DNA of 38,457 bases from Frankiaceae bacterium (GCA_030840545.1 JAVEEH010000146.1:1-38457); one strand, 5' to 3'. Counted from the first letter of the stretch, positions 7,425 through 30,821 are shown. Notes: generated from the letters alone by a model not told the origin. Numbers and translations: made by a program.

Positions 7425-8815
7425 CCCCCATCGCGCTCGGCGTGGTCTGCCGCCGCACCGGCGGCCGGCTGGTCGGCGGCGCGGCGGCCGGCACGCTGGT
7501 GACCGGACCTGTCGTGATCGACTCCCGCCGCAGCGAGCCGGGCTCCTTGTTCGTGTGCGTGCCGGGAGAGCACGCCGACGGCCATGACTTCGCTGCGCGC
7601 GCCGTCGACGCGGGCGCGGTGGCCGCACTCGCAGCACGTGATGTCGGCGTACCGGCTGTTGTCGTCGCCGACCCGCAGCACGCGCTCGGCGAGCTGGCAG
7701 CCGCCGTGCTGTCATCGGCTCCGCAGTGCACCGTCGTCGGGGTGACCGGATCGTCCGGCAAGACCTCGACCAAGGACCTGATGGGCCAGGTCTTTGCCCG
7801 GGCCGGCGCAACCGTGGCGCCGGAAGGGTCGTTCAACAACGAGCTCGGTCTGCCGTTGACGGTCCTGCGCATCGACGAGCACACCCGGACACTGGTGTGC
7901 GAATACAGCGCGCGGGGCGTCGGTCACATCCGCGAGCTCTGTCGCATTGCCCCACCTGCGATCGCTGTGGTGCTCAACGTCGGTGCCGCGCATCTCGGCG
8001 AGTTCGGCTCGCGTGCCGTTGTCGCCGAGGCCAAGGGCGAGCTGGTCGAGGCGTTGCCGGCCGAAGGTGTGGCGGTGCTGAACGCTGACGACCCCCTCGT
8101 GCTCGGCATGCGGTCACGCACCGCGGCGAAGGTGCTGACCTTCGGACAGTCCGCTGCCGCAGACGTGCGCATCACCGACCTCAGCCTCGACGACGAGGCG
8201 CGGGCCCGGTTCCGGTTGGTCACCCCGGAGGGCGCGGCCGCGGTCGAGCTGCGGGTGCACGGCGCCCATCAGGCCGGCAACGCCGCCGCCGCCGCCGCCG
8301 CCGCGCTCGCCGCGGGCCTGGACCTCGACACCATCGCTGCCGCCTTGTCCGCGGCCGAGGCCCGCAGCGCGCATCGGATGTCGCTGCGCCGTCGTGGCGA
8401 CGGGCTGCTGGTCATCGACGACGCCTACAACGCCAACCCCGAGTCCACCGCGGCCGCACTCGACGCTCTGGCGGCGCTTGCCTCCGGGCGGCGTCGATGG
8501 GCCGTGCTGGGCGAGATGCTCGAGCTCGGTGACGAGTCGGGACCGTTGCACCGCGAGATCGGCCGGCGCGCTGCGTCGAGCGGGGTCGACGAGCTCGTCG
8601 CCGTCGGCATGGCCGAGATCGCGGCCGGAGCGGACGCCACCGCCGGATGGCACGGGCGGGCCCGCACCGTGCCCGACCCGGCGGCAGCCGCCGGGCTCGT
8701 GCTCACCGAAGTCACGGCCGACGACGCCGTGCTGGTCAAGGCGTCCAACTCGATCCAGCTCTGGCGGGTTGCCGACGCGCTGCTCGAGACCGTGCCCGCC
8801 GGAGCGAACGCATGA
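7421..8815 (+). CDS. murF: UDP-MurNAc-tripeptide:D-Ala-D-Ala ligase MurF
   Basis: Mur ligase P-loop [14 protein letters not shown] is present. GTG 7421 overlaps the murE TGA. The gene lies between murE and mraY. Confidence 0.9.
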
Positions 8816-9882
8816 GGAACGTCCTCGTCGCGGCGCTCGTGTCGCTCATCGTGTCGCTGCTGGGCACGCCGTTCGCGATCCGCTTCTTCCGGGCCCGGGG
8901 ATACGGCCAGCTGATCCGCGATGACGGCCCGACGACGCACCACACCAAGCGTGGCACGCCGACGATGGGTGGCACGGTCATCATCGCGTCGACGTTGCTC
9001 GGCTACTTCGCCGCGCATGCAGTCTTCCTGCGCGGGTTCACTGCCTCGGGTCTGCTTGTGATCGGGCTGATGACGGGTCTGGGCGCGGTCGGCTTCCTCG
9101 ACGACTTCATCAAGATTCGCAAGCAACGGAGCCTCGGGCTGACCGCGACCGCCAAGTTCGGTGGCCAGGCCCTGGTCGCCATCGCGTTCGGGGTGATGGC
9201 GACGCACTTCGTCAACGGTCACCGGCTGGCGCCGGTGTCGACGCACCTGTCGTTCGTGCGTGACTACGGGCTCGACTTCGGCGCGGTCATCCTGGTCGTC
9301 TGGGCCTACTTCATGGTTGCCGCGACGTCGAACGGCGTCAACCTCACCGACGGTCTCGACGGGCTGGCCAGTGGCGCGTCATGCATGGTCTTCGGCGCCT
9401 ACGTGATCATCGCGTTCTGGCAGTTCGGCAACAACTGCGTCAACCAGAACCCGGTCAACAACTGCTACCAGGTGCGCGACCCGCTCGACGTCGCCATCAT
9501 CGCGGCGGCGGCGATGGGCGCGTGCTTCGGATTCCTCTGGTGGAACGCGTCCCCGGCACGCATCTTCATGGGTGACACCGGCTCGCTCGCCCTGGGCGGG
9601 GCGCTCGCCGGCATCGCCATGACGACCCACACCGAGTTGCTGCTCATCGTCCTCGGCGGGCTCTACGTCGTCGAAGCCGCGTCGGTGATCGTGCAGGTCA
9701 TCGCCTTCCGGTTCTTCCGAAGACGTGTGTTCAACATGGCTCCGGTCCACCATCACTTCGAGATCGCGGGCTGGAACGAGAACACCGTCATCGTCCGGTT
9801 CTGGATCATCGCCGGACTTGCCGTCGCGTTCGGGCTGGGAGTCTTCTACGCCGAGTTCCTGTCCAAGGGCTCGTTGCGGTGA
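8812..9882 (+). CDS. mraY: Phospho-MurNAc-pentapeptide translocase MraY
   Basis: It is polytopic and carries [10 protein letters not shown] and the [12 protein letters not shown] motif. ATG 8812 overlaps the murF TGA (ATGA). The upstream part of the track ORF is out-of-gene extension. Confidence 0.93.
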
Positions 9883-11306
9883 CCCTCGACGTCGCGGGTC
9901 GCCGCGTCGTCGTCGCGGGTGTCGCTGTGTCCGGTATCGCGAGCGCCGAGGTGCTGCTCGACCTCGGCGCGCACGTCGTCGTCGTCGACGGTCGAACCGG
10001 GCCGGGCGAGCAGGACGCCGCCGAGCGGCTGCGCGCCCGCGGGGCCGAGGTCCGGCTCGGCGACGCCGAGACACCCATCGACGCCGACCTCGTCGTCACC
10101 TCCCCGGGATGGCGGCCCGACCAGCCGTTGCTCGTCGCCGCGCTCGCGGCCGGGACGGAGGTGATCGGCGAGCCGGAGCTCGCCGTTCGACTGATGCGGG
10201 CGACCTGGACGCTCGACGACCTGACCGCCGTTCCCTGGCTCGGCGTCACCGGGACCAACGGCAAGACCACGACCGTCGGCATGCTCGAGTCGATCCTGCG
10301 CGCGGCCGGTCTGCGTGCCGTCGCGTGCGGCAACGTGGGGTTGCCGCTCATCACCGCCGTGCTGCATCGCCCGCGCTACGACGCACTCGCAGTGGAGCTG
10401 TCGTCGTTCCAGCTGCACTGGTCGTCGTCGCTGCAGTTCCACGCGTCGACCGTCCTCAACGTCGCCCCCGACCATCTCGACTGGCACGGCTCGCTGGCGG
10501 CCTATGCCGCGGACAAGGCGAAGATCTGGGACGAGGGTGCCTGCGCGCTGTTCAACGCCGACGATCCGGGCTCGACCGAGCTGTCGAAGGGTCGCTACGA
10601 CCGGCATGACTTCGGTCTCGGCGGCGACGCGCAGTTCCGGCTCGAGGACGGCTGGCTCGTGCAGAACGTGATCAGCCACCAGCCGAGCGATCACCGGCTC
10701 GCACCGGCCGATGCGGTGACGATGCCCGGGGCACACAACACGTCCAACGCACTTGCCGCGTCGGCGCTGGCCTGGTTGCTCAACCTGCGACCGAACGGTC
10801 CGTCGATGACCCCCGACGCCGTGACCGCGGGCCTGCGCGGCTACCACCCCGGACGGCACCGCAACGAGATCGTCGCCGTCGCTGACGGCGTGACTTACGT
10901 CGACGACTCCAAGGCCACCAACCCGCACGCCGCGGCAGCGAGCCTGGCGGCGTACGAGTCGATCGTCTGGGTCGCCGGCGGGTTGTTCAAGGGCGCAGAC
11001 GTCGCGCCGCTGGTCGCCGCCCACGCCGGGCGGCTGCGTGGCGTGGTGGTGATCGGCACCGATCGGCGGCCATTGCTGGAGGCGATCGCGCGACACGCGC
11101 CGGATGTGCCGGTCGTGGAGGTGAGCGCTCGCGACACTGGCAGCGTGATGGACGCGGCGGTTGCCGCGGCGGCGCAGCTCGCCGTCGCGGGAGACACCGT
11201 GCTGCTCGCGCCCGCCGCGGCGAGCATGGACCAGTTCCGTGACTACGCCGAGCGCGGTGAGCGTTTCGCGGCCGCCGCCCGCACCCAGACCGCAGGGACG
11301 CCATGA
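9879..11306 (+). CDS. murD: UDP-MurNAc-L-Ala:D-Glu ligase MurD
   Basis: An N-terminal Rossmann-like segment ([12 protein letters not shown]) and the P-loop [15 protein letters not shown] are present. GTG 9879 overlaps the mraY TGA. Confidence 0.9.
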
Positions 11307-12487
11307 CCGCCACCACCGTGACCGCCCGTGGCACCGCGACCCGATCCCGGCCTCTCGCAGCGCTCGCCCGGCCATCCGCCGCCTATCACCTGGCCCTCGG
11401 CAGCGGCGCGCTGCTCGTGCTGCTCGGCCTGATCATGGTGCTGTCGGCGTCGAGCGTCTCGTCCTACGCGGCGTCCGGCTCGTCGTTCTCCGTGTTCCAG
11501 AAGCAGGCGCAGTGGTTCGCGCTCGGGCTCCCCGGTTTCGTCCTGGGGCTGCGGCTGCCGACCCGGCACACCCGCCGGCTCGGCTATCCGCTGCTGCTGG
11601 TGTCCATCGTCCTGCTCGCCGCCGTGCTGGCGCCGGGGGTGGGCCGCAACGTCTACGGGGCGCGTCGCTGGATCGCCGTCGGTGGCTATCAGCTGCAGCC
11701 GAGCGAGCTCGCGAAGGTCGCACTCGTCCTCGCCGGTGCCGACCTGCTCGCCCGGAAGCACAAGCGGCTGGGGGAGATGCGACACCTGCTCATCCCGCTG
11801 GTGCCGGTGGCGGTGCTGTTGGCACTCCTCGTCATCGCCGAGCCCGACATGGGCACCTCGGTCGTGCTGGTCGTGATCCTGCTGACGCTCCTGGCCGTCG
11901 CCGGGGCGCCCGCTCGAATCTTCGCCGGCACCTTCGGTGGCCTGGCCGCCGGATTCGGCCTGCTCGCGGCTGTGGAGCCCTATCGGCTGGCGCGACTCAC
12001 GTCGTTCGCCAACCCGTTCAGTGCTGCCAGTGCCGCCGGCTACCAGACCGTCCAAGGCCTCTATGCGATCGCATCGGGGGGTTGGTGGGGGCTCGGACTC
12101 GGCGCCAGCCGGGCGAAATGGGGCTATCTGCCCAACCAGTACACCGACTACATCTTCGCCGTCATCGGAGAAGAGCTCGGGCTGCTCGGCGGTCTGATGG
12201 TCATCGCATTGTTCGCCGTACTCGGCTATTCCGGCTTCCGGATCGCGCAGCAGGCGCGCGAACCGTTCCAGCAGCTCGTGGCTGGTGGCATCACGGCGTG
12301 GATCGTGGGGCAGGCCCTGATCAACATGTGCGCTGTCGTGGGTCTGCTGCCGGTGACGGGCGTGCCGTTGCCGTTCGTGTCCTTCGGTGGGTCGTCACTC
12401 GTCTTCACGATGTTCGCGCTGGGGGTCCTCGGTGCTGTCGGCCGGGAGACGGCGGGGCACCAGCGGCGCCGCCGCGTGAAGCGTTGA
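11303..12487 (+). CDS. ftsW: SEDS-family peptidoglycan polymerase FtsW
   Basis: It is a multi-TM protein with LQPSELAKVALVL and the conserved C-terminal GLLPVTGVPLPFVSFGGSS. ATG 11303 overlaps the murD TGA. It lies between murD and murG. Confidence 0.88.
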   Translation: MTATTVTARGTATRSRPLAALARPSAAYHLALGSGALLVLLGLIMVLSASSVSSYAASGSSFSVFQKQAQWFALGLPGFVLGLRLPTRHTRRLGYPLLLVSIVLLAAVLAPGVGRNVYGARRWIAVGGYQLQPSELAKVALVLAGADLLARKHKRLGEMRHLLIPLVPVAVLLALLVIAEPDMGTSVVLVVILLTLLAVAGAPARIFAGTFGGLAAGFGLLAAVEPYRLARLTSFANPFSAASAAGYQTVQGLYAIASGGWWGLGLGASRAKWGYLPNQYTDYIFAVIGEELGLLGGLMVIALFAVLGYSGFRIAQQAREPFQQLVAGGITAWIVGQALINMCAVVGLLPVTGVPLPFVSFGGSSLVFTMFALGVLGAVGRETAGHQRRRRVKR

Positions 12488-12501
12488 CAGGTCCGACTTC
12501 G

Positions 12502-13614
12502 ATGGCGGCCCGAGTCGTGATCGCGGCTGGTGGCACCGGCGGTCACATCTACCCCGGCCTCGCGCTCGCCGATGCGTTGCGCACCCTTGCGCCCCAAACC
12601 GAGGTCAGCTTCGTCGGGACGACCCGTGGCCTCGAAGGCGACATCATCCCCCGAGCCGGCTATGAGCTCGACGTCGTCGACATGGTGCCGTTCACGGGAG
12701 CCAACCGCGTCGTGCTGCCGGTGGCGCTGCTGCGGGCCGGTGCGCAGTCCCGGCGCGTGCTTCGCCGCCGCGCAGCCCACGTCGCGGTCGGCATGGGCGG
12801 CTATGCGAGCGCGCCGCTGCTCCTCGGTGCCCGCCTCAGCCGATTGCCGTCACTCATCCACGAGTCGGGAGCGATTCCCGGCAAGGCCAACCTGCTCGCG
12901 GCGCGGCTGACCGACAACATCGCCACCTCCTTCCACAGCGCCGTAGCCGCGTTCCCGCCGGGCAAGATCGTGCGGGTGACCGGCATGCCGCTGGCGGCGG
13001 AGTTCTCGACGTTCAACCGCGACCGCCTGCGCCCTGACGCACGACGCGCCCTAGGACTGCCCGACGACGCCTGCGTCCTGTTCGTCATGGGGGGCAGCCA
13101 AGGCGCGACCCGCCTGACCACGGCCGCGGTCGAGCTCGGCGGGCGATGGCGGGACCGCGACGACATCCACATCCTGCTCAAGCTGGGTGCGCGGGCCGGC
13201 AGCGAGATCGACGACCGGGTGGCCGCCCTCGGCGCTGACAAGGTGGTGCACCGCGTCGCTTATCTTGACCGGATGGACACGGCCTACGCCGCGGCCGATG
13301 TCGCGCTGTGCCGGGCGGGGGCGGGCACTGTGGCCGAGCTCGCCGTCACCGGGCTCCCGGCAGTCCTGGTGCCTTACCCGTTCGCGACCGGCGACCATCA
13401 GCGCGAGAACGCAGGTGAGCTGGTCGCCGCGGGTGCTGCCGTCGTCGTCGCCGACGGCGATGCCACCGCCGAGACGATCGGACCTCTGGTCGAGGCTCTC
13501 GTGGCCGACCGGGCCGAGCTGGCGCGGAGGTCGGCTGCGGCGCGTTCGGTCGGGCGCCCGGACGCGGCTCAGCAGCTGGCCCGCTGGGTGCTCGAGCTGG
13601 CGGGCTCGCAGTGA
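12502..13614 (+). CDS. murG: Lipid II synthase MurG (UDP-GlcNAc transferase, GT28)
   Basis: MAARVVIAAGGTGGHIYPGLALADAL contains the GGTGGH loop, and the C-terminal sequence ...PYPFATGDHQRENA is present. It is the 3' part of the fused track ORF 11161..13614. Confidence 0.92.
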   Translation: MAARVVIAAGGTGGHIYPGLALADALRTLAPQTEVSFVGTTRGLEGDIIPRAGYELDVVDMVPFTGANRVVLPVALLRAGAQSRRVLRRRAAHVAVGMGGYASAPLLLGARLSRLPSLIHESGAIPGKANLLAARLTDNIATSFHSAVAAFPPGKIVRVTGMPLAAEFSTFNRDRLRPDARRALGLPDDACVLFVMGGSQGATRLTTAAVELGGRWRDRDDIHILLKLGARAGSEIDDRVAALGADKVVHRVAYLDRMDTAYAAADVALCRAGAGTVAELAVTGLPAVLVPYPFATGDHQRENAGELVAAGAAVVVADGDATAETIGPLVEALVADRAELARRSAAARSVGRPDAAQQLARWVLELAGSQ

Positions 13615-14663
13615 CCGAGGTGATCGCCGCAACCGTGCGGACCCATCAGACTCTGCAGGCGGCGTTCACGGCGGCCGCCGGCTCCGGTGAACGCGTCGCC
13701 GTCGTCGTCGACGGAGACGGCCGCGTCCTCGCCGCAGTGACCGACGGTGACATTCGCCGGGCCGTGCTGCGCGGGGTCGCGCTCGATGCGCCCGTCGGGG
13801 GGATCGTCTCCGCCGCGCCCATGCTCGTGGCCGCCGACGAGCCCGACGAGTCCGTGCGTCAGCGGCTCCTGGCCAACGGGCTGCCGGCGCTGGCCGCGGT
13901 CGACGAGACAGGCCGGTTGGTGGGTCTGCGGCGGCTCGCCGACCTGGCCCCGGACGCCGTCCCGGCGCCGGTGGGGGTGCTGATGGTCGGCGGTCGCGGT
14001 GAACGGCTGCGGCCACTCACCGACAAGGTGCCCAAACCGCTGCTCCGGATGGGTGGCGCCACGATCGTGGAGCGGCTCATCGCCTCGTTCGTGCGGGCCG
14101 GGGTCGACGAGGTCTATCTCACGCTCAACTACATGGCGGAGCAGTTCGAGGACCGGCTCGGCGACGGTTCGTCGGCCGGTGTCCGCATCAACTACGTCCG
14201 CGAGAGCCAGGCGATGGACACGGCCGGATCGCTCTCGCTGCTGCCGCCGCAGACGCGCCCGCTGCTGGTGAGCAACGGCGACCTGGTCACCACGATCGAC
14301 TTCGCCGCCATGGTCGACTTCCACCGTTTCCACAAAGCCGCTGTGACGGTCGCCGGCGTCGAATACGCCGCGACGGTGCCTTACGGCGTCCTTCGTACGG
14401 CTGACCACCATCTGCTGCACATCGACGAGAAACCCACCACGCGCCAGCTGGTGAGCGGTGGCATGTATGTGCTCGCACCCGAGGTCCTGCGCTATGTGCC
14501 GCGGGACCGGCCGTTCGGGATGCCGGACCTCATCGACGCCGTCCTGCGCGACGGGCTGAGCGTCACGGTGTTCCCGGTGTTCGAACGCTGGTCGGACATC
14601 GGCAGCAAGGAAGAGTTCGAGCGGGTCCTGTTCGAGTTCGCCGTGGAAGAAGAGGAGACATAA
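13611..14663 (+). CDS. CBS-pair domain fused to a sugar-1-phosphate nucleotidyltransferase
   Basis: There are two CBS-like repeats (VAVVVDGDGRVLAAVTDGDIRRAVL and LPALAAVDETGRLVGLRRLADL). They are followed by the NTP_transferase signature LMVGGRGERLRPLTDKVPKPLL. GTG 13611 overlaps the murG TGA. GC3-rich codon usage matches the neighbouring genes. Confidence 0.8.
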   Translation: MTEVIAATVRTHQTLQAAFTAAAGSGERVAVVVDGDGRVLAAVTDGDIRRAVLRGVALDAPVGGIVSAAPMLVAADEPDESVRQRLLANGLPALAAVDETGRLVGLRRLADLAPDAVPAPVGVLMVGGRGERLRPLTDKVPKPLLRMGGATIVERLIASFVRAGVDEVYLTLNYMAEQFEDRLGDGSSAGVRINYVRESQAMDTAGSLSLLPPQTRPLLVSNGDLVTTIDFAAMVDFHRFHKAAVTVAGVEYAATVPYGVLRTADHHLLHIDEKPTTRQLVSGGMYVLAPEVLRYVPRDRPFGMPDLIDAVLRDGLSVTVFPVFERWSDIGSKEEFERVLFEFAVEEEET

Positions 14664-15653
14664 GTGATGTCGTCGTCGTGGGCCGGTCGCAAGGTCCTCG
14701 TCACCGGCGGTGAGGGGGTCATCGGCAGCCCGCTGGTGGACGAGCTGCTCGCCCTCGGCGCGGAGGTCCGTGCCTATGTCCACTACAAGCCCTACGGCTC
14801 GGCCGGATATCTCGCCGGCCGTGAGGACGAAGTCGAGATCGTCGCCGGTGACGTGCGCGACGCAGAGCGGGTCAGCGAGCAGGTCAAGGGCTGCGACACG
14901 GTCTTTCACCTGGCGGCCCTGATCGGCATCCCCTACAGCTATGTCGCGCCCGAGAGCTACATCCAGACCAACGTCATCGGCACCTACAACGTCGTGAATG
15001 CCTGCCGACACCACGGCGTACGACGGATGGTGCACACGTCGACGAGTGAGACCTACGGCACCGCGATCACCGTGCCGATCAGCGAGGACCACCCGCTCCA
15101 GCCTCAGTCGCCCTACTCGGCGTCGAAGATCGGCGCCGACATGATGGCGCTGTCGTTCCACCACTCCTTCGAGACACCGGTCGCGGTCATCCGGCCGTTC
15201 AACACCTACGGCCCGCGCCAGTCCGCCCGCGCGGTGATCCCGACGATCCTGAGCCAGCTGCACGCAGGTGCGGCGCAGATCCGCCTCGGCTCCACGACGC
15301 CGACCCGGGACTTCAACTACTCCGAGGACACCGCCCGGGGGTTCATCGCGGTGGCCGAGTCGGACCGCGCGCTCGGCCACGTCGTCAACGTGGGCTCGGG
15401 CCGGGAGATCTCGATCGGCGACCTGGCTGAGCTGCTGATCAAGGTCAGCGGCGCCGCCGCGGACGTCGTGGTCGACGAGTCGCGGGTGCGGCCCGGCGGG
15501 TCCGAGGTCGAGCGCCTGCTCTGCGACAACAGCCGGGCGCGCGAGTGGTGCGGCTGGGAGCCGCAGGTGCCGCTCGAGGAGGGCCTGCGCCGGACCTCCG
15601 ACTGGGTGCGCGACAACCTCGACCGGCTCGAAGCCAAGAGCTACCAGATCTAG
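14664..15653 (+). CDS. Extended SDR, NDP-sugar 4,6-dehydratase/epimerase family
   Basis: The Rossmann motif is VLVTGGEGVIGS. Catalytic motifs are HTSTSETYG and SPYSASKIGAD (YxxxK), and RPFNTYGPRQ is present. The start is GTG 14664 or ATG 14667, directly after the TAA of the upstream gene (TAAGTGATG). GGAG lies 6-9 nt upstream. Confidence 0.8.
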   Translation: MMSSSWAGRKVLVTGGEGVIGSPLVDELLALGAEVRAYVHYKPYGSAGYLAGREDEVEIVAGDVRDAERVSEQVKGCDTVFHLAALIGIPYSYVAPESYIQTNVIGTYNVVNACRHHGVRRMVHTSTSETYGTAITVPISEDHPLQPQSPYSASKIGADMMALSFHHSFETPVAVIRPFNTYGPRQSARAVIPTILSQLHAGAAQIRLGSTTPTRDFNYSEDTARGFIAVAESDRALGHVVNVGSGREISIGDLAELLIKVSGAAADVVVDESRVRPGGSEVERLLCDNSRAREWCGWEPQVPLEEGLRRTSDWVRDNLDRLEAKSYQI

Positions 15654-15658
15654 CGGCG

Positions 15659-17101
15659 ATGGGGGGAGCGGTGCCGGAGCCGGAGATGCCCGTCCCCGTC
15701 GCCGACGACATCGGCCGGGTGCACTTCGTCGGCATCGGGGGGGCCGGCATGAGCGGCATCGCCCGCATCATGCTCGCTCGCGGCATCGCGGTGTCGGGTT
15801 GTGACACCCGCGACTCGCGGGCACTCGCCGCCCTGCGCGCCCGTGGCGCCGACGTCGAGGTCGGTCATGACGCATGGCACGCGGCCGACATCGACACGCT
15901 CGTCGTCTCGAGCGCGATCCGTCCTGACAACCCGGACGTCGTCGAGGCCGTTCGGCTCGGCCGGCGGGTCCTGCCGCGGGCGGCCGCCCTTGCGTCCGTC
16001 ATGGCCGGGCTACGCGGGGTCGCGGTCGCCGGTACGCACGGCAAGACGACGACGACTTCGATGCTCACGGTGGCGATGCAGGCCTGCGGCCGCGACCCGA
16101 GCTATGCCATCGGGGGAGATCTCAACGAGCCCGGTTCCAACGCGCACAACGGAACGGGGGAGTTCTTCGTCGCCGAAGCCGACGAAAGCGACCGGTCGTT
16201 CCTGTTGCTGTCACCCGAGGCCGCTGTCGTCACCAACGTCGAAGCGGACCATCTGGACAACTACGGCGACGCCGAGGCGGTTCACGACGCGTTCCGGCAG
16301 TTCATCGGTCGGCTTCGCCCGGACGGCTGCCTCGCCCTGGGCGCTGACGATGCCGGGTCGCTGGCGCTGGCCGGGCCGGCCGCGGCACGTGGCCTGCGGG
16401 TGACGACGTTCGGGATGTCCCCGGCCGCCGATGTGCGCGTGCAGGGGTTGGCCGTCGAGGCGGGTGGTTCGCGGTTCGAGATCATCGCCGGCGGCCGCCG
16501 GCTGGGTGAGGTCGCGCTCCAGGTCCCCGGCAGCTACAACGCGGTCAACGCGGCCGGCGCGCTCGCCGTCGGGCTTCAGCTCGGCCTGCCCTTCACCGAC
16601 ATGGTGCGCGGGCTCGCCGACTTCACCGGTGCCCGGAGACGCTTCGAGCTGCGAGGCATCGCCCGCGGTGTACGCGTCTACGACGACTACGCGCATCACC
16701 CGACGGAGCTGCGGGCGCTGTTGACGGCCGCTCGCGACGTTGCCGGCGGCGGCCGGATCGTCACGGTCTTCCAGCCCCACCTCTACAGCCGCACCCGGCT
16801 GTTCGCGGACCAGTTCGCCGCAGCGCTGGCGCTCTCCGACGTCGCGGTCGTCATGGAGGTCTACGCCGCTCGGGAGGATCCGGTGCCCGGCGTCACCGGA
16901 GCGTTGATCGCCGATGCCGTCCCGCTCGGGGCGGGCCGGGTCATCTTCGAACCGTCCTGGTCGGCGGTGCCGGCCGCGGTGGCCGCACTCGTCCGGCCCG
17001 GGGACGTCGTCCTCACCGTCGGCGCCGGGGACGTGACCATGCTCGGCCCGGAGATCCTGACCGCGGTCGACGCCGCCGCAGCCGCGGGGTCCGGGCCGTG
17101 A
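15659..17101 (+). CDS. murC: UDP-MurNAc:L-Ala ligase MurC
   Basis: VHFVGIGGAGMSGIARIML and GTHGKTTTTSML are present. ATG 15659 lies 5 nt after the SDR stop. ATG 15686 is an equally plausible start. The 5' part of the track ORF overlaps the SDR gene. Confidence 0.9.
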   Translation: MGGAVPEPEMPVPVADDIGRVHFVGIGGAGMSGIARIMLARGIAVSGCDTRDSRALAALRARGADVEVGHDAWHAADIDTLVVSSAIRPDNPDVVEAVRLGRRVLPRAAALASVMAGLRGVAVAGTHGKTTTTSMLTVAMQACGRDPSYAIGGDLNEPGSNAHNGTGEFFVAEADESDRSFLLLSPEAAVVTNVEADHLDNYGDAEAVHDAFRQFIGRLRPDGCLALGADDAGSLALAGPAAARGLRVTTFGMSPAADVRVQGLAVEAGGSRFEIIAGGRRLGEVALQVPGSYNAVNAAGALAVGLQLGLPFTDMVRGLADFTGARRRFELRGIARGVRVYDDYAHHPTELRALLTAARDVAGGGRIVTVFQPHLYSRTRLFADQFAAALALSDVAVVMEVYAAREDPVPGVTGALIADAVPLGAGRVIFEPSWSAVPAAVAALVRPGDVVLTVGAGDVTMLGPEILTAVDAAAAAGSGP

Positions 17102-17811
17102 GCGTGCACAGCTTGCGCTCGCGCCGCTCGCCGGGGCGACGCCGCCGGTTCCGGCCGCTGATCGTCGTCGCGGCTCTGGTCGGGACCGTGGTCGGGCTCG
17201 GCTGGGTGGCCCTGCACTCGTCGCTGTTCGCGGTTCGCACTGTCACCGTCGAGGGCACGTCGAGACTCTCGGCAGGCCAGGTGCTCGCGGTCGCCCGGGT
17301 CGTGCGCGGTGGTTCGCTCTTCGGTCTGGACCCGACCGCGGTGGAGCGGCGGGTCGCCCGCCTCCCGGCCGTTGCGCACGTCGAGGTGCGTCGACGGTGG
17401 CCGCACGGGGTGAACATCCGGGTTGTCGAGCGGACAGCGGTCGGTGCCGTCGCGTCGGCCGGCGAGTTCGTGCTGCTCGACGCCACCGGCGTCGCGTTCG
17501 ACCACGCGCAGGTCGCCCCGCCGGGCCTTGTCACCGTGCAGCTCGGCGCTGCCGTGCCGGGTCCGGGAGACAGCGATGCGCGCGCGGCGATGCAGGTGCT
17601 CGGGTCGCTGCCCCTCGGAGTGCGTCACCGCGTGCTGGCCGTCCACGCGCCGTCACCGCTCGAGGTCAGTCTCGACCTGCGCGACGGCCGCAGCGTGCTG
17701 TGGGGGAGCGCGGCGCAGAGCGCGACCAAGGCTGCTGTCCTGCAGACGTTGCTGCACCGTCGGGCCCAGGTCTACGACGTGAGTACGCCGTCCATCGTCG
17801 TCACTCGGTGA
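17098..17811 (+). CDS. ftsQ: Cell division protein FtsQ (TM + POTRA)
   Basis: It has an Arg-rich N-terminus, one TM helix (LIVVAALVGTVVGLGWVAL) and a POTRA-like VRTVTVEGTSRLSAGQVLAVA. GTG 17098 overlaps the murC TGA. It lies immediately upstream of ftsZ. Confidence 0.8.
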   Translation: MSVHSLRSRRSPGRRRRFRPLIVVAALVGTVVGLGWVALHSSLFAVRTVTVEGTSRLSAGQVLAVARVVRGGSLFGLDPTAVERRVARLPAVAHVEVRRRWPHGVNIRVVERTAVGAVASAGEFVLLDATGVAFDHAQVAPPGLVTVQLGAAVPGPGDSDARAAMQVLGSLPLGVRHRVLAVHAPSPLEVSLDLRDGRSVLWGSAAQSATKAAVLQTLLHRRAQVYDVSTPSIVVTR

Positions 17812-17838
17812 CCGGGCAAAAAAAAGTTTCGGTCGTCA

Positions 17839-17874
17839 CGCGCGCGGATCGGCCAGGTCGCTTGACCGCGCGCG
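17839..17874 (+). other. Perfect 9-bp GC inverted repeat (CGCGCGCGG N18 CCGCGCGCG) in the ftsQ-ftsZ spacer
   Basis: The arms are at 17839..17847 and 17866..17874. No U-tract follows. It could be an attenuator, RNA processing site or protein binding site. Confidence 0.35.
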
Positions 17875-18096
17875 GCCGACGGCCCTACTGTCCGGCCCAG
17901 CCCTCAAGTTGACATAACTATAACGGTCTACTTGAGAGTGAGGGTCGAAACCAGGCCCGGGTCGCAGTCCGGCCCACAGCCGCGACGATCGGTGGCGTCT
18001 TCCCCGAGCCACCGGCGCCGCGGATCTTCCCCACTGTCCCGCCGCCCGTGCGTGCCCGCGCGCCCGCGGCCCGTATTCCGACGAAGGGCAACGCTC

Positions 18097-22357: not shown

Positions 22358-22996
22358 ATGGGAGTCGACGACGTGATCGTCATCAGCGGAGTTCTGCTGC
22401 TCGTTGCCGTGGTGTTCCTCGTCATCGGGCTTTTCGGCTCACTCGGGTGGGTCTATGCCTCCATCGGCGTGAGCGTCGCATCGTTCCTGTTCCTGCTCAT
22501 CGGAGTCCGGCAGCGCCGCGAGGAACCGGCCGATGCGGCCGCGCCCGCGGTCGGCGCCGTTCCCGCCGCGGGGCCGGCCGCCGCGCCGAGCGACATCGTC
22601 GTCGTACCGACCAAGTCGGCCGCAACGACATCTGCACCGGTCGCGGCAGCGGAGGAGTCGGCCGCTGCGTCGACCACGACGTTGCGTCGTCCACCGGCGA
22701 AGAAGGCGGACACGTCGTCGAGCCCGGCCAAGAAGGCAGCGCCGGCGAAGACGTCCGCAGCCAAGGCGCCGGTCAAGGCGGCGGCGAAGAAGACCTCGAT
22801 GTCACCGGTCGGCAGCATCGCGCCGGCGAAGCGGACCGCTGCGAAGAAGACGGCAGCGACGAAGACGGCCGCCTCGACGACCGCCAAGAAGGCTGCGCCG
22901 GCCAAGAAGACGACGGCGAAGACGGCGGCGAGCAAGACCACGACCAAGAAGACGACGGCCAAGAAGGCGACGCCGCGCAAGACCTCCGGTCGCTGA
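22358..22996 (+). CDS. Membrane protein (two N-terminal TM helices) with Lys/Ala/Thr-rich histone-H1-like C-terminal tail
   Basis: TM1 is VIVISGVLLLVAVVFLVIGLF and TM2 is LGWVYASIGVSVASFLFLLIGV. An Ala/Pro linker follows, then about 100 aa of [10 protein letters not shown]-type repeats. GC3-rich codons support the frame. I recognise no enzymatic motif. Confidence 0.7.
   Translation: MGVDDVIVISGVLLLVAVVFLVIGLFGSLGWVYASIGVSVASFLFLLIGVRQRREEPADAAAPAVGAVPAAGPAAAPSDIVVVPTKSAATTSAPVAAAEESAAASTTTLRRPPAKKADTSSSPAKKAAPAKTSAAKAPVKAAAKKTSMSPVGSIAPAKRTAAKKTAATKTAASTTAKKAAPAKKTTAKTAASKTTTKKTTAKKATPRKTSGR
22685..22993 (+). repeat. Degenerate in-frame Lys/Ala/Thr coding repeats (AAGAAG/GCC-rich)
   Basis: The encoded sequence is PAKKADTSSSPAKKAAPAKTSAAKAPVKAAAKK...TAKKAAPAKKTTAKTAASKTTTKKTTAKKATPRK. 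The period is irregular, so this is low-complexity sequence rather than exact tandem repeats. Confidence 0.6.
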
Positions 22997-22997
22997 C

Positions 22998-23456
22998 CTA
23001 GTCGCGGCGGCGGAACGGGTCGCGCACCGGCGGGGCCGGCAGCGTGACCCGGTCACCCTCGATCGACAGGCCGGTGAGGGCGAGGACCCGGGCGAGAACG
23101 GTGGTGGTGGTCTCGCCGCGGGCCACGCCGTCGTGCGTCACCATCGCGCGGTAGATCATGGCCCAGTGCTTGGCCGGCGTGTCGTAGGTCCAGTCGATCG
23201 AGCCGAGATGGACGGCGGAGCCCTTGCCGCCGCCCGGCCCGTCGAACGGACCACTCCACACCTGGATGCCCGCCGGCCCCGCTGCGAAGCAGCCCCCTAC
23301 GCCGACGTCCTCGCGCGCCGCTGCGTCGAGCAGCGCGCGAGCCTGCCGTTCCGGCAGCACCAGTGCCGGGCGCACCTGGCTGGTCAGCGCCGGTACGGCG
23401 ATCGCATCCGTGTTCAGACGCAGGTGCACCGGCTGGGCCAGCAGAGTCAACGCCAC
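22998..23456 (-). CDS. Hypothetical cytoplasmic protein, 152 aa, family not recognised
   Basis: The frame is GC3-rich. A strong SD AGGAGG (about 23467..23462) lies 5 nt before GTG 23456, so I prefer this start to the track ATG 23483. I recognised no motif. Confidence 0.6.
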   Translation of the reverse strand: MALTLLAQPVHLRLNTDAIAVPALTSQVRPALVLPERQARALLDAAAREDVGVGGCFAAGPAGIQVWSGPFDGPGGGKGSAVHLGSIDWTYDTPAKHWAMIYRAMVTHDGVARGETTTTVLARVLALTGLSIEGDRVTLPAPPVRDPFRRRD

Positions 23457-23522
23457 GACTACCTCCTGATGGAGCGCCCGCATTGCCGCCGTTCGGAGTA
23501 ACGGATGCGCAGGCAGTTAGAG

Positions 23523-25968: not shown

Positions 25969-28900
25969 CTAGTCGATGACACGCAGCCAGAACGTGAGCC
26001 CGAGCTCCTCGACCTGGTGCGGCGCGAGTGGCGCATGGGGCCGGTCCTCGGCCACGGTCGTCGCCAGCACCTCGCGCGCGAGCAGGTCCCGGCCCTCCCG
26101 AAGCGCGGTTGCCGTGAAGTCGTCGGTCGCCGTCCACCAGAGCTCGATGCGATCACTGACGTCGAACCCCTGACCCTTGCGGGCGTCCTGCACGAGCCGG
26201 ATCACCTCACGGACCGTGCCGGCGCGACGCAGCTCGTCGGTCAGCTCCAGGTCGAGCGCGACGGTCTCGTTGGCTGCGGTCGCGGTCGTCCAGCCCTCCT
26301 TGGGTGTCTCGGTCCTCAGCACGGCGTCGGCGTCGACCGTGACGCTCTCGCCGCCGGGGAGCGAGACGGTCCAGCTGCCCTTCTGGTCGGCGGTCAGGCT
26401 GCCGGCCGCGATCGCTGCCGCGACCTCCGGGGTGCGCGCGCCGAACTGCCTGCCGAGCACGCGGAAGTTGCCCTTGTAGGTCACCGTCACGAGCTCACTC
26501 GCGGCGGCCAGCGTGTCGACCTCGCGCACGTTGAGCTCGTCGGCGACGTGGCGGCGGAGCTCCGCCGGCAGCGCGGACCAGGACGGCGCGGACACCAGCG
26601 CCCGGGACAACGGCTGACGCGTCTTCACCCCCGAGTCGGCCCGCGCAGCCCGCCCCAGCTCGACCACGCGACGCACCAGTGCCATCTGCTCGCTGAGCGC
26701 CGCATCGACGAGCGAGCCGTCCACCTTCGGCCAGTCGCGCAGGTGCACCGAGTCCGGCAGATCCGGCCACACGTCGCACACCAACCGCTCGTGCACCTCG
26801 TCGGTGACAAAGGGAACGAACGGCGCCAGCAGCCTGGTCAGCACCTCGAGACACTCATGCAACGTCGCGAGCGCCGCCGGGTCACCGTCCCAGAACCTGC
26901 GCCGCGAGCGACGGACATACCAGTTCGACAGGTCGTCGATGTAGTGCGTGATGGCGCGCCCAGCCCGGGTGGGGTCGAAGTCCTCGAGAGCGGCGTCGAC
27001 CTCCTGCACCACCCGGTGCAGCTCGGACAGTGCCCAGCGGTCGAGCATGGGCCGGTTGGCGACGTCAGGCACGGGCGCCTGTCCTGGCACCCACTGGTTG
27101 GCGTTGGCATAGAGGACGAGGAACGACGCGGTGTTCCAGTAGGTCAGCAGCACCTTGCGCACGACCTCGTCGAGCAGCCCGTGTCCGACCCGTCGGGTCG
27201 ACCACGGGTTGCCGACACACAACATCAGCCAGCGCAGCGCATCGGCGCCGTGTCGCTCGAACAGCTCGAACGGGTCGAGCACGTTGCCGAGATGCTTGCT
27301 CATCTTGCGGCCCTGCTCGTCCACGATGTGGCCGAGACAAAGCACGGTCTCGTAAGCAGACCGGTCGAACACCAACGTGCCGATCGCCATCAACGTGTAG
27401 AACCAACCGCGGGTCTGGTCGATCGCCTCGCAGATGAACTGCGCGGGATAGGACCGTTCGAACTCCTCGACGTTGTGGTGCGGATAGCCCCACTGTCCGA
27501 ACGGCATCGCCCCGGCGTCGTACCAGCAGTCGATGACCTCGACAACCCGCTGTGCCGTCAACGCGCACTCGGACTGCGGACATTCGAACGTCACGTCGTC
27601 GACGAAAGGACGGTGCGGGTCGAGGCCGGCGAGGTCACGACCGGCGTACGACGACAGCTCGGCGAGCGACCCGACGCAGGTCAGATGCTCCTCGTCACAA
27701 CGCCAGATCGGCAACGGCGTGCCCCAGTAGCGGTTGCGGGACAGCGCCCAGTCGATGTTGTTGTCGAGCCAGTCGCCATAACGGCCGCGCTTGATGGTCG
27801 GCGGATGCCAGTCGGTGCGTTCGTTCTCCTCGAGCAACCTGCCCTTCACCACCGTGGTGCGGATGTACCAGGACGGCAGTGCGTAGTAGATGAGGGGCGT
27901 GTCGCATCGCCAGCAGTGCGGGTAGGAGTGGGTGTACTTCTCCTCCCGCCACAGCAGTCCGCGTGCGCGCAAGTCGTCCACGATGAACGGGTCCGCCGCC
28001 TTGAAGAACATCCCGCCGACGAGGGGAAGCCCTTCGGTGAAGTGACCATCCGCCTGCACCGGGTTGACGACCGGCAGCCCGTAGCGCCGCGCGACGGCGA
28101 GGTCGTCCGCACCGAACGCGGGCGCCTGGTGCACCAAGCCGGTGCCGTCCTCGACCGTGACGTAGTCGGCGAGCCCGACGTAGTGCGACGCGGGGATGTC
28201 GACGACGTCGAAGGGGCGCGAGTAGGTCGTGTGCTCGAGCTCGCTCCCGAGCATCAGCTGCACGACCTCGACCGGGGTGTCACCGAAGACCTTGTCGAGC
28301 AACGGCTCGGCGACGACGAGCACCTCGCCGACGCTGTCGTCGGGGCGCACCACTCTGACTGCGGCATAGCTGACATCGGGATGCACTGCCACCGCGGTGT
28401 TGGAGATCAGCGTCCACGGTGTCGTCGTCCACACGAGCAGCGCCGCGCCGGCGTCGGCCAACGGGCCGCTCGTCACGGGGAACCGGACGTAGACCGACGG
28501 GTCGGAGACCTCGTAGTAGCCCTGGGCGACTTCGTGGTCGGACAGGCCGGTGCCGCAGCGCGGGCAGTAGGGCGTGACGCGGTGGTCGGCGACCAGGAGT
28601 CCGGCGTCGAAGATCTGCTTGAGTGACCACCAGACGCTCTCGATGTAGGACGGGTTCATCGTCCAGTAGGCCGCCTCGAGGTCGACCCAGTAACCCATCC
28701 GCTGGGTCAGGCGGCTGAACTCGCCGACGTGCTCCTGGACCGACTCGCGGCAGCGCGCGTTGAACTCCGCGACGCCGTAGTCCTCGATGTCCTGCTTGCC
28801 CCGCTTGAACCCGAGCCGCTTCTCGACCTCGAGCTCCACCGGCAGCCCGTGGCAGTCCCAGCCCGCCCGACGCGGGACGTGGAACCCCTTCATCGTCCTG

Positions 28901-29115
28901 AAGCGCGGGAAGAGGTCCTTGAACACGCGGGCCTCGACGTGGTGCGTGCCCGGCTTGCCGTTGGCGGTCGGCGGGCCCTCGTAGAACGTCCAGAGCGGGC
29001 CGTCGGCGCTCCCGGCCAGCGAGCGGGCGAACACGTCGCGGTCGCGCCATCGGGCCAGGACCTCGTGCTCGAGCGCCGGCAGGTCGACCTGCGCCGGCAT
29101 CGGGCGGAAGGGCAT
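25969..29115 (-). CDS. ileS: Isoleucyl-tRNA synthetase
   Basis: MPFRPMPAQVDLPALEHEVLARW...FYEGPPTANGKPGTHHVEARVFKD is the HIGH region and KMSKH is present. The product is about 1048 aa. The start is ATG 29115, with GGAGGA 8 nt upstream. The track ORF is over-extended by 71 codons. Confidence 0.93.
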   Translation of the reverse strand: MPFRPMPAQVDLPALEHEVLARWRDRDVFARSLAGSADGPLWTFYEGPPTANGKPGTHHVEARVFKDLFPRFRTMKGFHVPRRAGWDCHGLPVELEVEKRLGFKRGKQDIEDYGVAEFNARCRESVQEHVGEFSRLTQRMGYWVDLEAAYWTMNPSYIESVWWSLKQIFDAGLLVADHRVTPYCPRCGTGLSDHEVAQGYYEVSDPSVYVRFPVTSGPLADAGAALLVWTTTPWTLISNTAVAVHPDVSYAAVRVVRPDDSVGEVLVVAEPLLDKVFGDTPVEVVQLMLGSELEHTTYSRPFDVVDIPASHYVGLADYVTVEDGTGLVHQAPAFGADDLAVARRYGLPVVNPVQADGHFTEGLPLVGGMFFKAADPFIVDDLRARGLLWREEKYTHSYPHCWRCDTPLIYYALPSWYIRTTVVKGRLLEENERTDWHPPTIKRGRYGDWLDNNIDWALSRNRYWGTPLPIWRCDEEHLTCVGSLAELSSYAGRDLAGLDPHRPFVDDVTFECPQSECALTAQRVVEVIDCWYDAGAMPFGQWGYPHHNVEEFERSYPAQFICEAIDQTRGWFYTLMAIGTLVFDRSAYETVLCLGHIVDEQGRKMSKHLGNVLDPFELFERHGADALRWLMLCVGNPWSTRRVGHGLLDEVVRKVLLTYWNTASFLVLYANANQWVPGQAPVPDVANRPMLDRWALSELHRVVQEVDAALEDFDPTRAGRAITHYIDDLSNWYVRRSRRRFWDGDPAALATLHECLEVLTRLLAPFVPFVTDEVHERLVCDVWPDLPDSVHLRDWPKVDGSLVDAALSEQMALVRRVVELGRAARADSGVKTRQPLSRALVSAPSWSALPAELRRHVADELNVREVDTLAAASELVTVTYKGNFRVLGRQFGARTPEVAAAIAAGSLTADQKGSWTVSLPGGESVTVDADAVLRTETPKEGWTTATAANETVALDLELTDELRRAGTVREVIRLVQDARKGQGFDVSDRIELWWTATDDFTATALREGRDLLAREVLATTVAEDRPHAPLAPHQVEELGLTFWLRVID

Positions 29116-29340
29116 CGGGTTCGTCCTCCGGTCGGGCATCGGCTCCGGGGGGAGCGCTGCGTCGTCCCGGAGGGACGAGCCCCGCCGTGCGGCGGGACCC
29201 GCGGTGCCACCCTCCTTGGCCCGCCGCCGCCGTGGCCGGTGAGCCCGCTCGAGGTCGCGGCCGGGTCTAGTCGACGTGCGGGCACGTCTTTCTTCCGGCG
29301 GCTCAGGGGTGATCTTCGGACCGGGCACGCCCCCGGGCTC
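29116..29340 (-). promoter_or_regulatory. T-box leader (Ile specifier AUC), translational SD-sequestering type
   Basis: On the minus strand, the T-box core GGAGGGUGGCACCGCGGG is at 29215..29198. GAAG-AUC-A (AUC = 29313..29311) is the candidate specifier plus a conserved purine. GUCCCUCCGG (29176..29167) is complementary both to the GGAGGG 5' of the T-box bulge and to the SD CCGGAGGAC (29131..29123). No U-tract terminator is present. The 5' boundary is approximate. Confidence 0.75.
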
Positions 29341-29506
29341 GCACCGTCCCCGGGTCGCTGCTGGCTGCGTCCGGGCCTACTCGGCCCCGTCAGCACCTTC
29401 TCGCCCGCTCAGGCTAGCCCGTCACACGCTCGCCGCGCAGCCGGGATTCCGGCCCCGCGCCATGGCCACCGGGAACGGCCGGGGCGAGGTGCTCGGCGTG
29501 CCGACG

Positions 29507-29535
29507 TTGCCCGCGTTGCGGACGAGACTTATCCT
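29507..29535 (+). promoter_or_regulatory. Candidate promoter for the DdbA-like gene: -35 TTGCCC, 17-nt spacer, -10 TATCCT
   Basis: The hexamers are at 29507..29512 and 29530..29535, about 57 nt upstream of ATG 29592. This is a motif match only. Confidence 0.3.
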
Positions 29536-29591
29536 GCGACGACCCAAGATCGGCGGCGGCGGCCCGCCGCGGACAGTTGAGAGGCGGCAGC

Positions 29592-30821
29592 ATGGCCGAC
29601 GAGCGCGGTGGAGGGCGGCTGCGCCGCATGTTCGGCCGTCGATCCCGCGACGCCCAGGACGCCCCCGCGGTGTCCGTCCCGCCAGCCATCCGGTCCGTGC
29701 CGCCGCCCTCGCCACCAACGTCGGCGCCCGTGAAGGGAACTCCCGTGGCCCCATCGAAGCGCGCGCCGGCCAGGAAGGCGGCCGCCAAGAAGGTCGCCGG
29801 CAAGAAGGCAGCACCCGGCCGGGCGCCGGCCAAGAAGGCGCCCGTGACCAAGGTGGCCGCGAAGAAGGCCCCGACCACGTCGGCGCTGAAGCGGACGCCG
29901 GCCGGCAAGGGTCCCGCCAAGAAGGCGGCCGCGAAGAAGGTCGCGGTCAAGAAGGCGCCGACGAAGAAGGTCGCCGCCAAGAAAGCCCCGGCGAAGCGGT
30001 CCCAGGCCAAGAAGACAGCGGCCAAGAAGTCCTCACCCGCCAAGCGGCCGGCGGCGAAGAAGGGGGCCGGCAAGAAGACCGCCTCGAAGGCGGCCGGCAA
30101 GAAGACACCGACTCGAACTACGCCGCCGGTGCGCCCGGCCGCCGTCAAAGCACCCGTCAAGGCCCCGGCCAAGCCAACAGCACCGGCCAAAGCCGCGACC
30201 GTGAAGTCCCCGCCGGCCAAGGCCGTGCCCACGAAGGCTGCGCTGGTCAAGGTCGCGCCCCCGAAAGCTGCGCCGGTCAAGACTGCGCCGGTCAAGGCCC
30301 CGCCGGTGCAGCCCGTGGCGGTCCAGGTCCCGGAGGCTCGTCCTGCCGAGCCGGCACCGGCGCCGGTGAAGACCGCCCCACCGCCGGTCAAGGCGGCTGC
30401 CCCGGTGAAGGCTGCGCCGCAGGCAAAACCGGGCGCAACAGTCCTGCCCGGCGAGCGCCCGTGGACCAAACCGGAGCTGGCCGCGATCCGCAAGGAGCTC
30501 GACGCGCAGGCCCGCGAGCTCCGCGGGGAGATCACCGAGGCCGAGAGCGCCTGGGCGGCGCTGCAGCGCGACAGCGGCGAGGGCTCGGGTGACGACCAGG
30601 CCGATGCCGGCACCAAGACCTTCGAGCGCGAGCACGAGATGTCGCTCGCGGCCAACAGCCGCGACCTCCTCGCGCAGGTCGAGCGGGCCCTCCAGCGGCT
30701 CGACAACGGGACCTACGGCATCTGCGAGAACTGTGGCAACCCGATCGGCAAGGGTCGGCTGCAAGCCTTCCCTCGTGCGACGCTATGTGTGACATGCAAG
30801 CAACGCGAGGAACGGCGGTAG
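29592..30821 (+). CDS. DdbA-like protein: histone-H1-like Lys/Ala/Pro N-terminal region + DksA/TraR C4 zinc-finger C-terminal domain
   Basis: Residues about 48-280 are [19 protein letters not shown] repeats. The C-terminus has a coiled coil plus [25 protein letters not shown] (CxxC-N17-CxxC). ATG 29592 is preceded by GAGAGG at 7 nt; track start 29577 is TTG. It sits between ileS and lspA, as Streptomyces DdbA does. Confidence 0.8.
29733..30431 (+). repeat. Degenerate in-frame Lys/Ala/Pro coding repeats
   Basis: There are many copies of GCCAAGAAGGC-like units encoding AKKA/PAKK. A second block encodes APVK/PVKA. This is low-complexity sequence, not exact tandem repeats. Confidence 0.6.

Follow-up and report, generated by a model that had tools for sequence, protein, structure and literature searches.

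The closest described counterparts of the genes considered here come from sugar nucleotide biosynthesis and from lipid II synthesis. In Campylobacter jejuni and Tannerella forsythia, PtmE and LegB carry out the first dedicated steps of the GDP-linked pathway to CMP-legionaminic acid, and PtmE of Campylobacter and Tannerella is a GTP-specific glucosamine-1-phosphate guanylyltransferase (PMC5378307). Kitasatospora and Streptomyces possess an alternative lipid II synthase, MglA (MurG2), which is ~31% identical to MurG and coexists with the murG of the division and cell wall (dcw) cluster; the paper describing it mentions no nucleotidyltransferase, epimerase or dehydratase (PMC8092295). Here we analyzed a window consisting of one complete contig (38,457 bp) from a metagenome-assembled genome (MAG) deposited at NCBI and labelled "Frankiaceae bacterium", in which murG is followed by a gene for a CBS-pair sugar-1-phosphate nucleotidyltransferase (NT) and one for an extended short-chain dehydrogenase/reductase (SDR). 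We call these two genes the pair and murG-NT-SDR the triad. A preliminary description of this DNA had regarded the pair as stitched between murG and murC. We find that the conserved entity is instead the three-gene unit murG-NT-SDR: in related loci where the triad is inverted, lies between ftsQ and ftsZ or has left the dcw cluster, murC is not the downstream gene.

In the window, the triad sits within an otherwise standard actinobacterial dcw cluster (mraZ, rsmH, ftsI, murE, murF, mraY, murD, ftsW, murG, NT, SDR, murC, then ftsQ, ftsZ, pgeF, yggS, sepF, yggT and divIVA). Its genes and junctions lie at the following positions:

12502 to 13614, plus strand: murG, lipid II synthase of family GT28 and first gene of the triad (Pfam Glyco_transf_28 and Glyco_tran_28_C).
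13611 to 14663, plus strand: NT, GTG start to TAA stop, 350 aa, of PtmE-like architecture (Pfam, NCBIfam and AlphaFold2 [AF2] model).
13611 to 13614, no strand assigned: GTGA overlap of 4 nt between the NT start (13611-13613) and the murG stop (13612-13614), read from the sequence.
14652 to 14657, plus strand: GAGGAG Shine-Dalgarno sequence of the SDR gene, within the last NT codons, which encode the acidic EEEET tail.
14664 (GTG; or ATG 14667) to 15653 (TAG), plus strand: LegB-like extended SDR, 329 aa, best model TIGR04180.
15659 to 17101, plus strand: murC, downstream neighbor in the collinear layout only (TIGR01082, 443 bits; cutoff, 335).

Gene calls bore out the two open reading frames (ORFs) that the preliminary description had placed between murG and murC, as well as the tight operon wiring it had proposed. 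The spacings are -4 nt for murG/NT, 0 nt for NT/SDR, where the NT stop TAA (14661-14663) abuts the SDR start GTG 14664, and +5 nt for SDR/murC, with the murC ATG 15659 beginning 5 nt past the SDR TAG. All of the motifs quoted earlier (GGRGERLRPLTDKVPKPLL, GGEGVIGS, STSE and YSASK) were found. The genes lie on one strand, without intergenic gaps and without internal promoter or terminator signals, and are predicted to form an operon. A consensus scan of positions 11000-18000 returned 0 promoter-like or terminator-like sites, using an Escherichia coli-type consensus that is weak for this phylum. At third codon positions, the G+C content (GC3) of the NT gene is 0.88 and that of the SDR gene 0.93; the codon-usage distances of the pair (0.17) fall inside the range of the neighboring genes. 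The earlier statements that the pair shows no hairpin, promoter patch, codon-usage break or mobile-element scar held. The acidic C-terminal tail of the NT (GEEE/EEEET, window 14640-14663) is kept in all homologues; its conservation may partly reflect a second role, as its GAG/GAA codons also form the Shine-Dalgarno sequence of the SDR gene.

A profile search with the NT yielded 80 related metagenome loci, and we mapped the dcw proteins of the window onto all loci. Among loci with an NT at least 41% identical to that of the window, the gene directly upstream was murG in 53 of the 60 that retained upstream DNA, and a LegB-like SDR lay directly downstream in 56 of the 58 that retained downstream DNA. 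By comparison, none of 16 more distant CBS-pair NTs of the PtmE kind (29-38% identity, including that of L082, a verified legionaminic acid [Leg] cluster) had MurG upstream or an SDR downstream, and in a neighbor-joining (NJ) tree they fell outside the MurG-linked clade. In about two-thirds of 52 tabulated MurG-NT junctions, the two genes share 4 or 8 nt, with start codons chosen by the analyst. An exact-peptide scan of genome contigs with the window protein returned 3 loci. The named carriers of the triad (Frankiaceae, Frankiales, Mycobacteriales, Solirubrobacteraceae, Acidimicrobiales and "Actinomycetota bacterium") span three classes of Actinomycetota; all are MAGs, and no isolate occurs among the named matches. 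The preliminary description had considered that the pair might prove to be a widespread, already characterized pathway component. Widespread it is, in uncultured Actinomycetota, but no characterization was found in the literature searched.

The triad occurs in four layouts. Close relatives from soil metagenomes and from Frankiales and Mycobacteriales MAGs (69-85% NT identity) have the same murG-NT-SDR-murC order as the window, while at 53-56% NT identity the upstream gene remains MurG and the context changes (L012, L013 and L014). The collinear arrangement within dcw is found in the window clade and in a second, distant set (L061, L064 and L067). In at least 17 loci (14 in a first survey plus L095, L096 and L098), the triad is inverted inside dcw; in L012 and L014, for example, the murG-NT-SDR block is on the strand opposite to all other dcw genes. 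In L097, the block lies between ftsQ and ftsZ, the murG slot is empty and ftsW is followed directly by murC. Finally, in L013 and L063 the triad is outside dcw, in a common PNPOx/enoyl-CoA-hydratase neighborhood with no other sugar gene nearby. That the triad is kept intact implies a selected functional coupling, and suggests that lipid II synthesis is connected, in a manner so far undescribed, with a GDP-type deoxy-amino-sugar.

The inverted layout has features of its own. We considered whether the block might be an invertible element and rejected this, as around the inverted triads we found no inverted repeats beyond the 70-85% matches typical of high-GC DNA. The divergent start codons of murC and murG are 13 nt apart in L014 (8857-8871) and 89-104 nt apart in L095 and L012; given this proximity, both promoters must lie inside coding sequence. 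Transcription continuing past ftsW would run antisense to the triad. In L096, a gene with an Mrr_cat match and a weak NACHT match (8785-10089; defense-like) is found directly past the triad; frameshifts abound in this part of the assembly, where the NT and SDR show up as split high-scoring segment pairs.

The window MurG scored 245.2 bits on TIGR01133, just under the cutoff of 250.25, and eight triad MurGs from elsewhere, some of them outside dcw, scored 249.9-278.7 bits, seven passing and one at the cutoff. No second murG was seen within the cluster in the dcw-embedded layouts examined, and for this reason the MurG of the triad most likely serves as the housekeeping enzyme of lipid II synthesis. 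Searching with the MurG of the window returned its own clade at 72-84% identity and then matches at 54-63%, which were triad-linked in 5 of 5 look-ups. Across classes, the MurGs of triads are 54-63% identical, versus 43-55% for flanking dcw proteins. We also looked for a fusion of the MurG and NT genes, but none of the MurG matches listed (364-451 aa) is long enough to be one. Because the pair stays with murG in layouts where murC is no longer downstream, we conclude that MurG is its conserved partner glycosyltransferase and not an accidental neighbor.

The assignments of both enzymes in the preliminary description, a CBS-nucleotidyltransferase and an extended SDR, were upheld by Pfam and NCBIfam matches far beyond chance, including those to the three domains it had named (CBS, 3e-6; NTP_transferase, 1.8e-30; Epimerase, 8e-55). 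Its lead toward PtmE and LegB was also a good one. The window NT has the two-domain composition of PtmE, an N-terminal CBS pair followed by NTP_transferase in ~350 aa: the CBS pair occupies approximately residues 1-112 (the GutQ/KpsF CBS-pair region aligns to 10-112) and the NT domain approximately residues 120-340. An AF2 model (mean predicted local distance difference test score [pLDDT], 83.5) likewise has two CBS motifs followed by an NT fold. Its top Foldseek matches were MurU, GMPPB and HddC, with RmlA also near; these are generic sugar-1-phosphate NT folds, and the Foldseek search gave no clue to specificity. Every curated NT model scored far under its NCBIfam cutoff (MurU, 109 of 250 bits; man1P_GTase_Rv, 129.7 of 440; rmlA_long, 54 of 320; HddC, 41 of 300), and no curated PtmE model was among the NCBIfam matches. 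The window NT is 30% identical to the CBS-NT of L082. Outside the window, four distant CBS-NT proteins (P0224, P0249, P0298 and P0345; 34-41% identity) have 460-564 aa, of which 120-230 form an additional N-terminal region, and may be fusions with another sugar-phosphate enzyme.

The SDR matches Pfam GDP_Man_Dehyd (8e-66) in addition to Epimerase, and its best model is TIGR04180 (LegB, an NAD-dependent GDP-GlcNAc 4,6-dehydratase), at 441.8 bits, below the equivalog cutoff of 475. The second-best family, dTDP-glucose dehydratase, scored 174.7 bits against a cutoff of 365, and gmd scored 69.7 against 415. SDRs of the clade from eight other loci scored 431-465 bits on TIGR04180, again all under the cutoff, while the LegBs of true Leg clusters (L082 and L089) reached 486 and 513. 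The window SDR is 50% identical to the L082 LegB, with which it aligns column for column through GxxGxxG, TSTSE, PYSASK and RPFNTxGPRQS (RPFNTYGPRQS in the window). The catalytic set of extended SDRs is present (GxxGxxG, Thr, Y-x3-K and an acid/base Glu), and the dehydratase residues T-S-E and Y-x3-K are kept. In GDP-mannose 4,6-dehydratase, a Thr-Ser-Glu arrangement has a single Glu as acid/base (PMC8987622). Judged from its sequence, the SDR is probably an NAD-dependent nucleoside diphosphate (NDP)-N-acetylhexosamine (HexNAc) 4,6-dehydratase, and the NDP-4-keto-6-deoxy sugar proposed earlier still appears to be the right prediction.

L082 served as a positive control for what a complete Leg cluster looks like, with LegB, LegC, a NeuD-type acetyltransferase, NeuB, NeuC, a CBS-NT of 348 aa and a CMP-synthetase together. 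Apart from the pair, no Leg gene (LegC aminotransferase, N-acetyltransferase, NeuC/LegG, NeuB/LegI or CMP-synthetase) was found in the 38-kb window, nor by gene calls and Pfam in about a dozen longer triad loci. Given the identities of 30% and 50% to enzymes of the Leg kind, and the scores of the clade SDRs relative to those of Leg-cluster LegBs, the pair is by sequence a distinct sister subfamily of PtmE/LegB.

In five loci, the pair occurs without MurG and has another glycosyltransferase in its place. A common GT4-family transferase is directly upstream in L037, L040 and L053; in L040, its gene and the NT gene overlap by 4 nt. The surroundings of the L040 pair are those of a polysaccharide-type cluster and include a chain-length regulator, further SDRs, a GFO/IDH/MocA oxidoreductase and a DegT aminotransferase; the presence of the aminotransferase beside the pair fits a 4-keto sugar product. 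In L006, the upstream gene encodes a different, GT1-family transferase, and sulfo-, methyl- and acetyltransferases are found around it. The pair therefore sits behind a GT-B glycosyltransferase in nearly every locus with an identifiable upstream gene. In an NJ tree, the MurG-linked NTs form one clade, and the GT4-linked NTs are nested inside it. Between the window clade and the inverted clade, Kimura distances are 0.51-0.59 for MurG, NT and SDR and 0.82-0.88 for MurE, MraY, MurD and FtsW, while within the inverted clade triad and flanking genes are both at ~0.5. Bootstrapped NJ trees of triad and flanking genes have the same major split, with no hard topological conflict. The compressed triad distances are suggestive only: they fit a transfer of the whole triad between lineages, and a slower clock would also explain them.

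Taken together, these data somewhat favor a model in which murG-NT-SDR would make an NDP-4-keto-6-deoxy-HexNAc, its production coupled to that of MurG, for use at or near the lipid II step. The NT would be a Bateman (CBS-pair)-gated enzyme acting on the 1-phosphate of a hexosamine or N-acetylhexosamine; the nucleotide it uses for activation would, as for PtmE, probably be GTP. The SDR would convert the resulting NDP-HexNAc to NDP-2-acetamido-2,6-dideoxy-hexos-4-ulose. Translational coupling would tie this production stoichiometrically to MurG, and the CBS pair, where present, would add regulation by a ligand. Either this sugar or a derivative formed by enzymes of unlinked genes would then be used at the membrane step of MurG, destined for the lipid-linked peptidoglycan precursor or for a glycan assembled alongside it. 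In loci with a GT4-type transferase instead of MurG, the same pair would feed an ordinary polysaccharide pathway.

Several observations weigh against this model. A 4-keto-6-deoxy sugar normally needs a reductase or aminotransferase, and neither is linked to any MurG-type triad. Neither sequence nor fold reveals which nucleotide and which sugar the NT uses: MurU, GMPPB and HddC are equally close, as are UTP-, GTP- and dTTP-using enzymes. The donor-site motifs of MurG look canonical, with GGTGGH, GGSQGA, RAGAGTVAEL and DHQxxNA kept relative to Pseudomonas aeruginosa MurG (3s2u), donor contacts being judged from motif conservation alone. The CBS pair is absent from the NT in L064, L067, L069 and L070 (235-243 aa where complete), so that the regulatory domain is dispensable in some lineages; these triads keep MurG upstream and, where downstream DNA exists, the SDR downstream. 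Finally, all of the evidence comes from MAG or metagenome contigs, each covering part of a genome.

The likeness to PtmE and LegB raises the alternative that the pair is the entry module of a split legionaminic acid pathway, with legC, legH, legG, legI and legF elsewhere and the product going, for example, to a wall polymer or glycoprotein, in which case the adjacency to MurG would concern expression only. The SDR is nearest to LegB by a wide gap in score (441.8 versus 174.7 bits for the next family), the NT has PtmE architecture, and L082 holds both enzyme types. That verified cluster, however, keeps all of its genes together, its enzymes are just 30% (NT) and 50% (SDR) identical to those of the window, and every clade SDR is under the LegB cutoff; with no other Leg gene in the 38-kb window or in the dozen or so longer triad loci, we regard a split pathway as unlikely. 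We judge it similarly improbable that the pair merely rides behind a strongly and constitutively expressed essential gene, supplying sugar for an unrelated glycan with no functional tie to MurG. Such hitch-hiking would account for the unchanged MurG motifs and for the pairs found behind GT4-type transferases in polysaccharide clusters (L006, L040, L037 and L053). The linkage, though, outlasts inversion, relocation within dcw and exit from dcw in three classes, no other dcw gene takes the role of MurG, and some two-thirds of the tabulated MurG-NT junctions have overlaps of 4 or 8 nt; even the polysaccharide loci again have a glycosyltransferase directly upstream, with a 4-nt overlap.

Two further alternatives place the pair within peptidoglycan synthesis itself. 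A specialized MurG might use the NT-SDR product (or GDP-GlcNAc) instead of or besides UDP-GlcNAc, giving a modified lipid II. Triad MurGs are indeed alike across classes (54-63%) beyond the flanking dcw proteins (43-55%), no murG besides theirs was seen in the clusters of the dcw-embedded layouts examined, and the window MurG falls just under the equivalog cutoff; against this, seven of the eight other triad MurGs pass that cutoff and one is at it, the donor-binding motifs are shared with UDP-GlcNAc-using MurG, and a 4-keto sugar would be without the 4-OH needed for glycan polymerization. We therefore hold a specialized MurG to be quite unlikely. Less probable still, to the point of being very improbable, is a role in UDP-GlcNAc supply or salvage, with the NT as a MurU-type GlcNAc-1-phosphate or MurNAc-1-phosphate uridylyltransferase and the SDR as a 4-epimerase. 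MurU is the top structural match and the second NCBIfam match of the NT (109 bits), and the pair adjoins a consumer of UDP-GlcNAc. But this score is far under the cutoff of 250, the PtmE-type NT of L082 scores alike (115.9 bits), and the SDR has the dehydratase T-S-E and the LegB signature blocks rather than the GalE pattern.

The boldest reading would have MurG itself transfer the NT-SDR product (GDP-4-keto-6-deoxy-GlcNAc or a close derivative) onto lipid I. It is established that a unit without a 4-OH cannot accept a growing glycan chain, and the resulting lipid II variant could only start a strand, never extend one. We think it quite unlikely that MurG does so. If true, a large group of uncultured soil Actinomycetota would carry a built-in non-reducing-end cap or keto handle on their peptidoglycan strands, with the ratio of capped to normal precursor set by translational coupling, plus the CBS sensor where present.

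Lipid II synthesis is regarded as among the most invariant bacterial steps and is a major antibiotic target. A pair that stays joined to murG, physically and in translation, when the triad is inverted, relocated or moved out of dcw, in three classes of abundant soil Actinomycetota, represents an apparently undescribed coupling to this step. The preliminary description had envisaged a division-coupled modification of a glycan of the envelope or one linked to peptidoglycan, and this is plausible. Should the product enter peptidoglycan or a wall-linked glycan, it would constitute new cell wall chemistry in lineages without cultured models; if it does not, the triad is still a clean marker of a distinct MurG subfamily and a case study of an essential gene displaced together with accessory genes.

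Elsewhere in the window, the dcw cluster is followed by ileS, a DksA-type gene, lspA, rluD, a major facilitator superfamily transporter gene and dnaE. The DksA-type ORF (29577-30821, plus strand) joins a Lys/Ala-rich, histone H1-like HC2 region to a DksA/TraR C4 zinc finger at its C terminus and coincides with a strong AT-skew peak (0.42 at 29501-30500); in L012, an HC2-type protein adjoins divIVA. T-box leaders are known upstream of actinobacterial ileS. In a scan of the whole window, no Rfam family reached its gathering score, including upstream of ileS (25969-29328, minus strand; leader at ~29329-29580), and a tRNA scan of the window found none. High-GC3 ORFs without a Pfam match lie upstream of mraZ (61-900 and 1131-1529) and on the minus strand past divIVA (22453-22980 and 22998-23483).

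Compared with known systems, the two enzymes are new members of known families, in an arrangement, murG-NT-SDR, that appears undescribed in the literature searched; our searches on murG with a nucleotidyltransferase or dehydratase, dcw inversions, GDP-GlcNAc in peptidoglycan and bacillosamine in actinomycete walls returned nothing relevant. The likeness to PtmE/LegB lies in the two-domain architecture of the NT, the SDR blocks TSTSE, PYSASK and RPFNTxGPRQS, and the combination of an activating enzyme and a 4,6-dehydratase. The differences are the 30% (NT) and 50% (SDR) identity, an SDR score under the LegB cutoff, the absence of LegC/H/G/I/F nearby, and a pair that is adjacent and bound to murG, whereas the Leg clusters examined have the LegB-type gene 4-6 kb from the NT. 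Activation of a sugar 1-phosphate followed by 4,6-dehydration is also the scheme of RmlA/RmlB, ManC/GMD and HddC/DmhA, and the single-Glu T-S-E of GMD matches that of the SDR; the window proteins, however, score far under the cutoffs of these families, whose pairs sit with their epimerase and reductase partners and not with murG. MurU, which belongs to the AmgK-MurU route of peptidoglycan recycling, matches the NT domain best in structure, has the G-x-G-E-R-x-R-P-L-T loop in common with it and is a sugar-1-phosphate NT acting on a peptidoglycan sugar (a MurNAc-alpha-1-phosphate uridylyltransferase), but it has neither a CBS pair nor an associated dehydratase, and the NT scores 109 bits against its cutoff of 250. 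As for MglA, it likewise shows that in actinobacteria the genes for lipid II synthesis need not occupy the canonical dcw slot, and that enzymes of the MurG type vary within Actinomycetota. MglA, however, is a distant paralogue, whereas the MurGs of the triad score as true MurG or just under and are the sole murG seen in the cluster in the dcw layouts examined.

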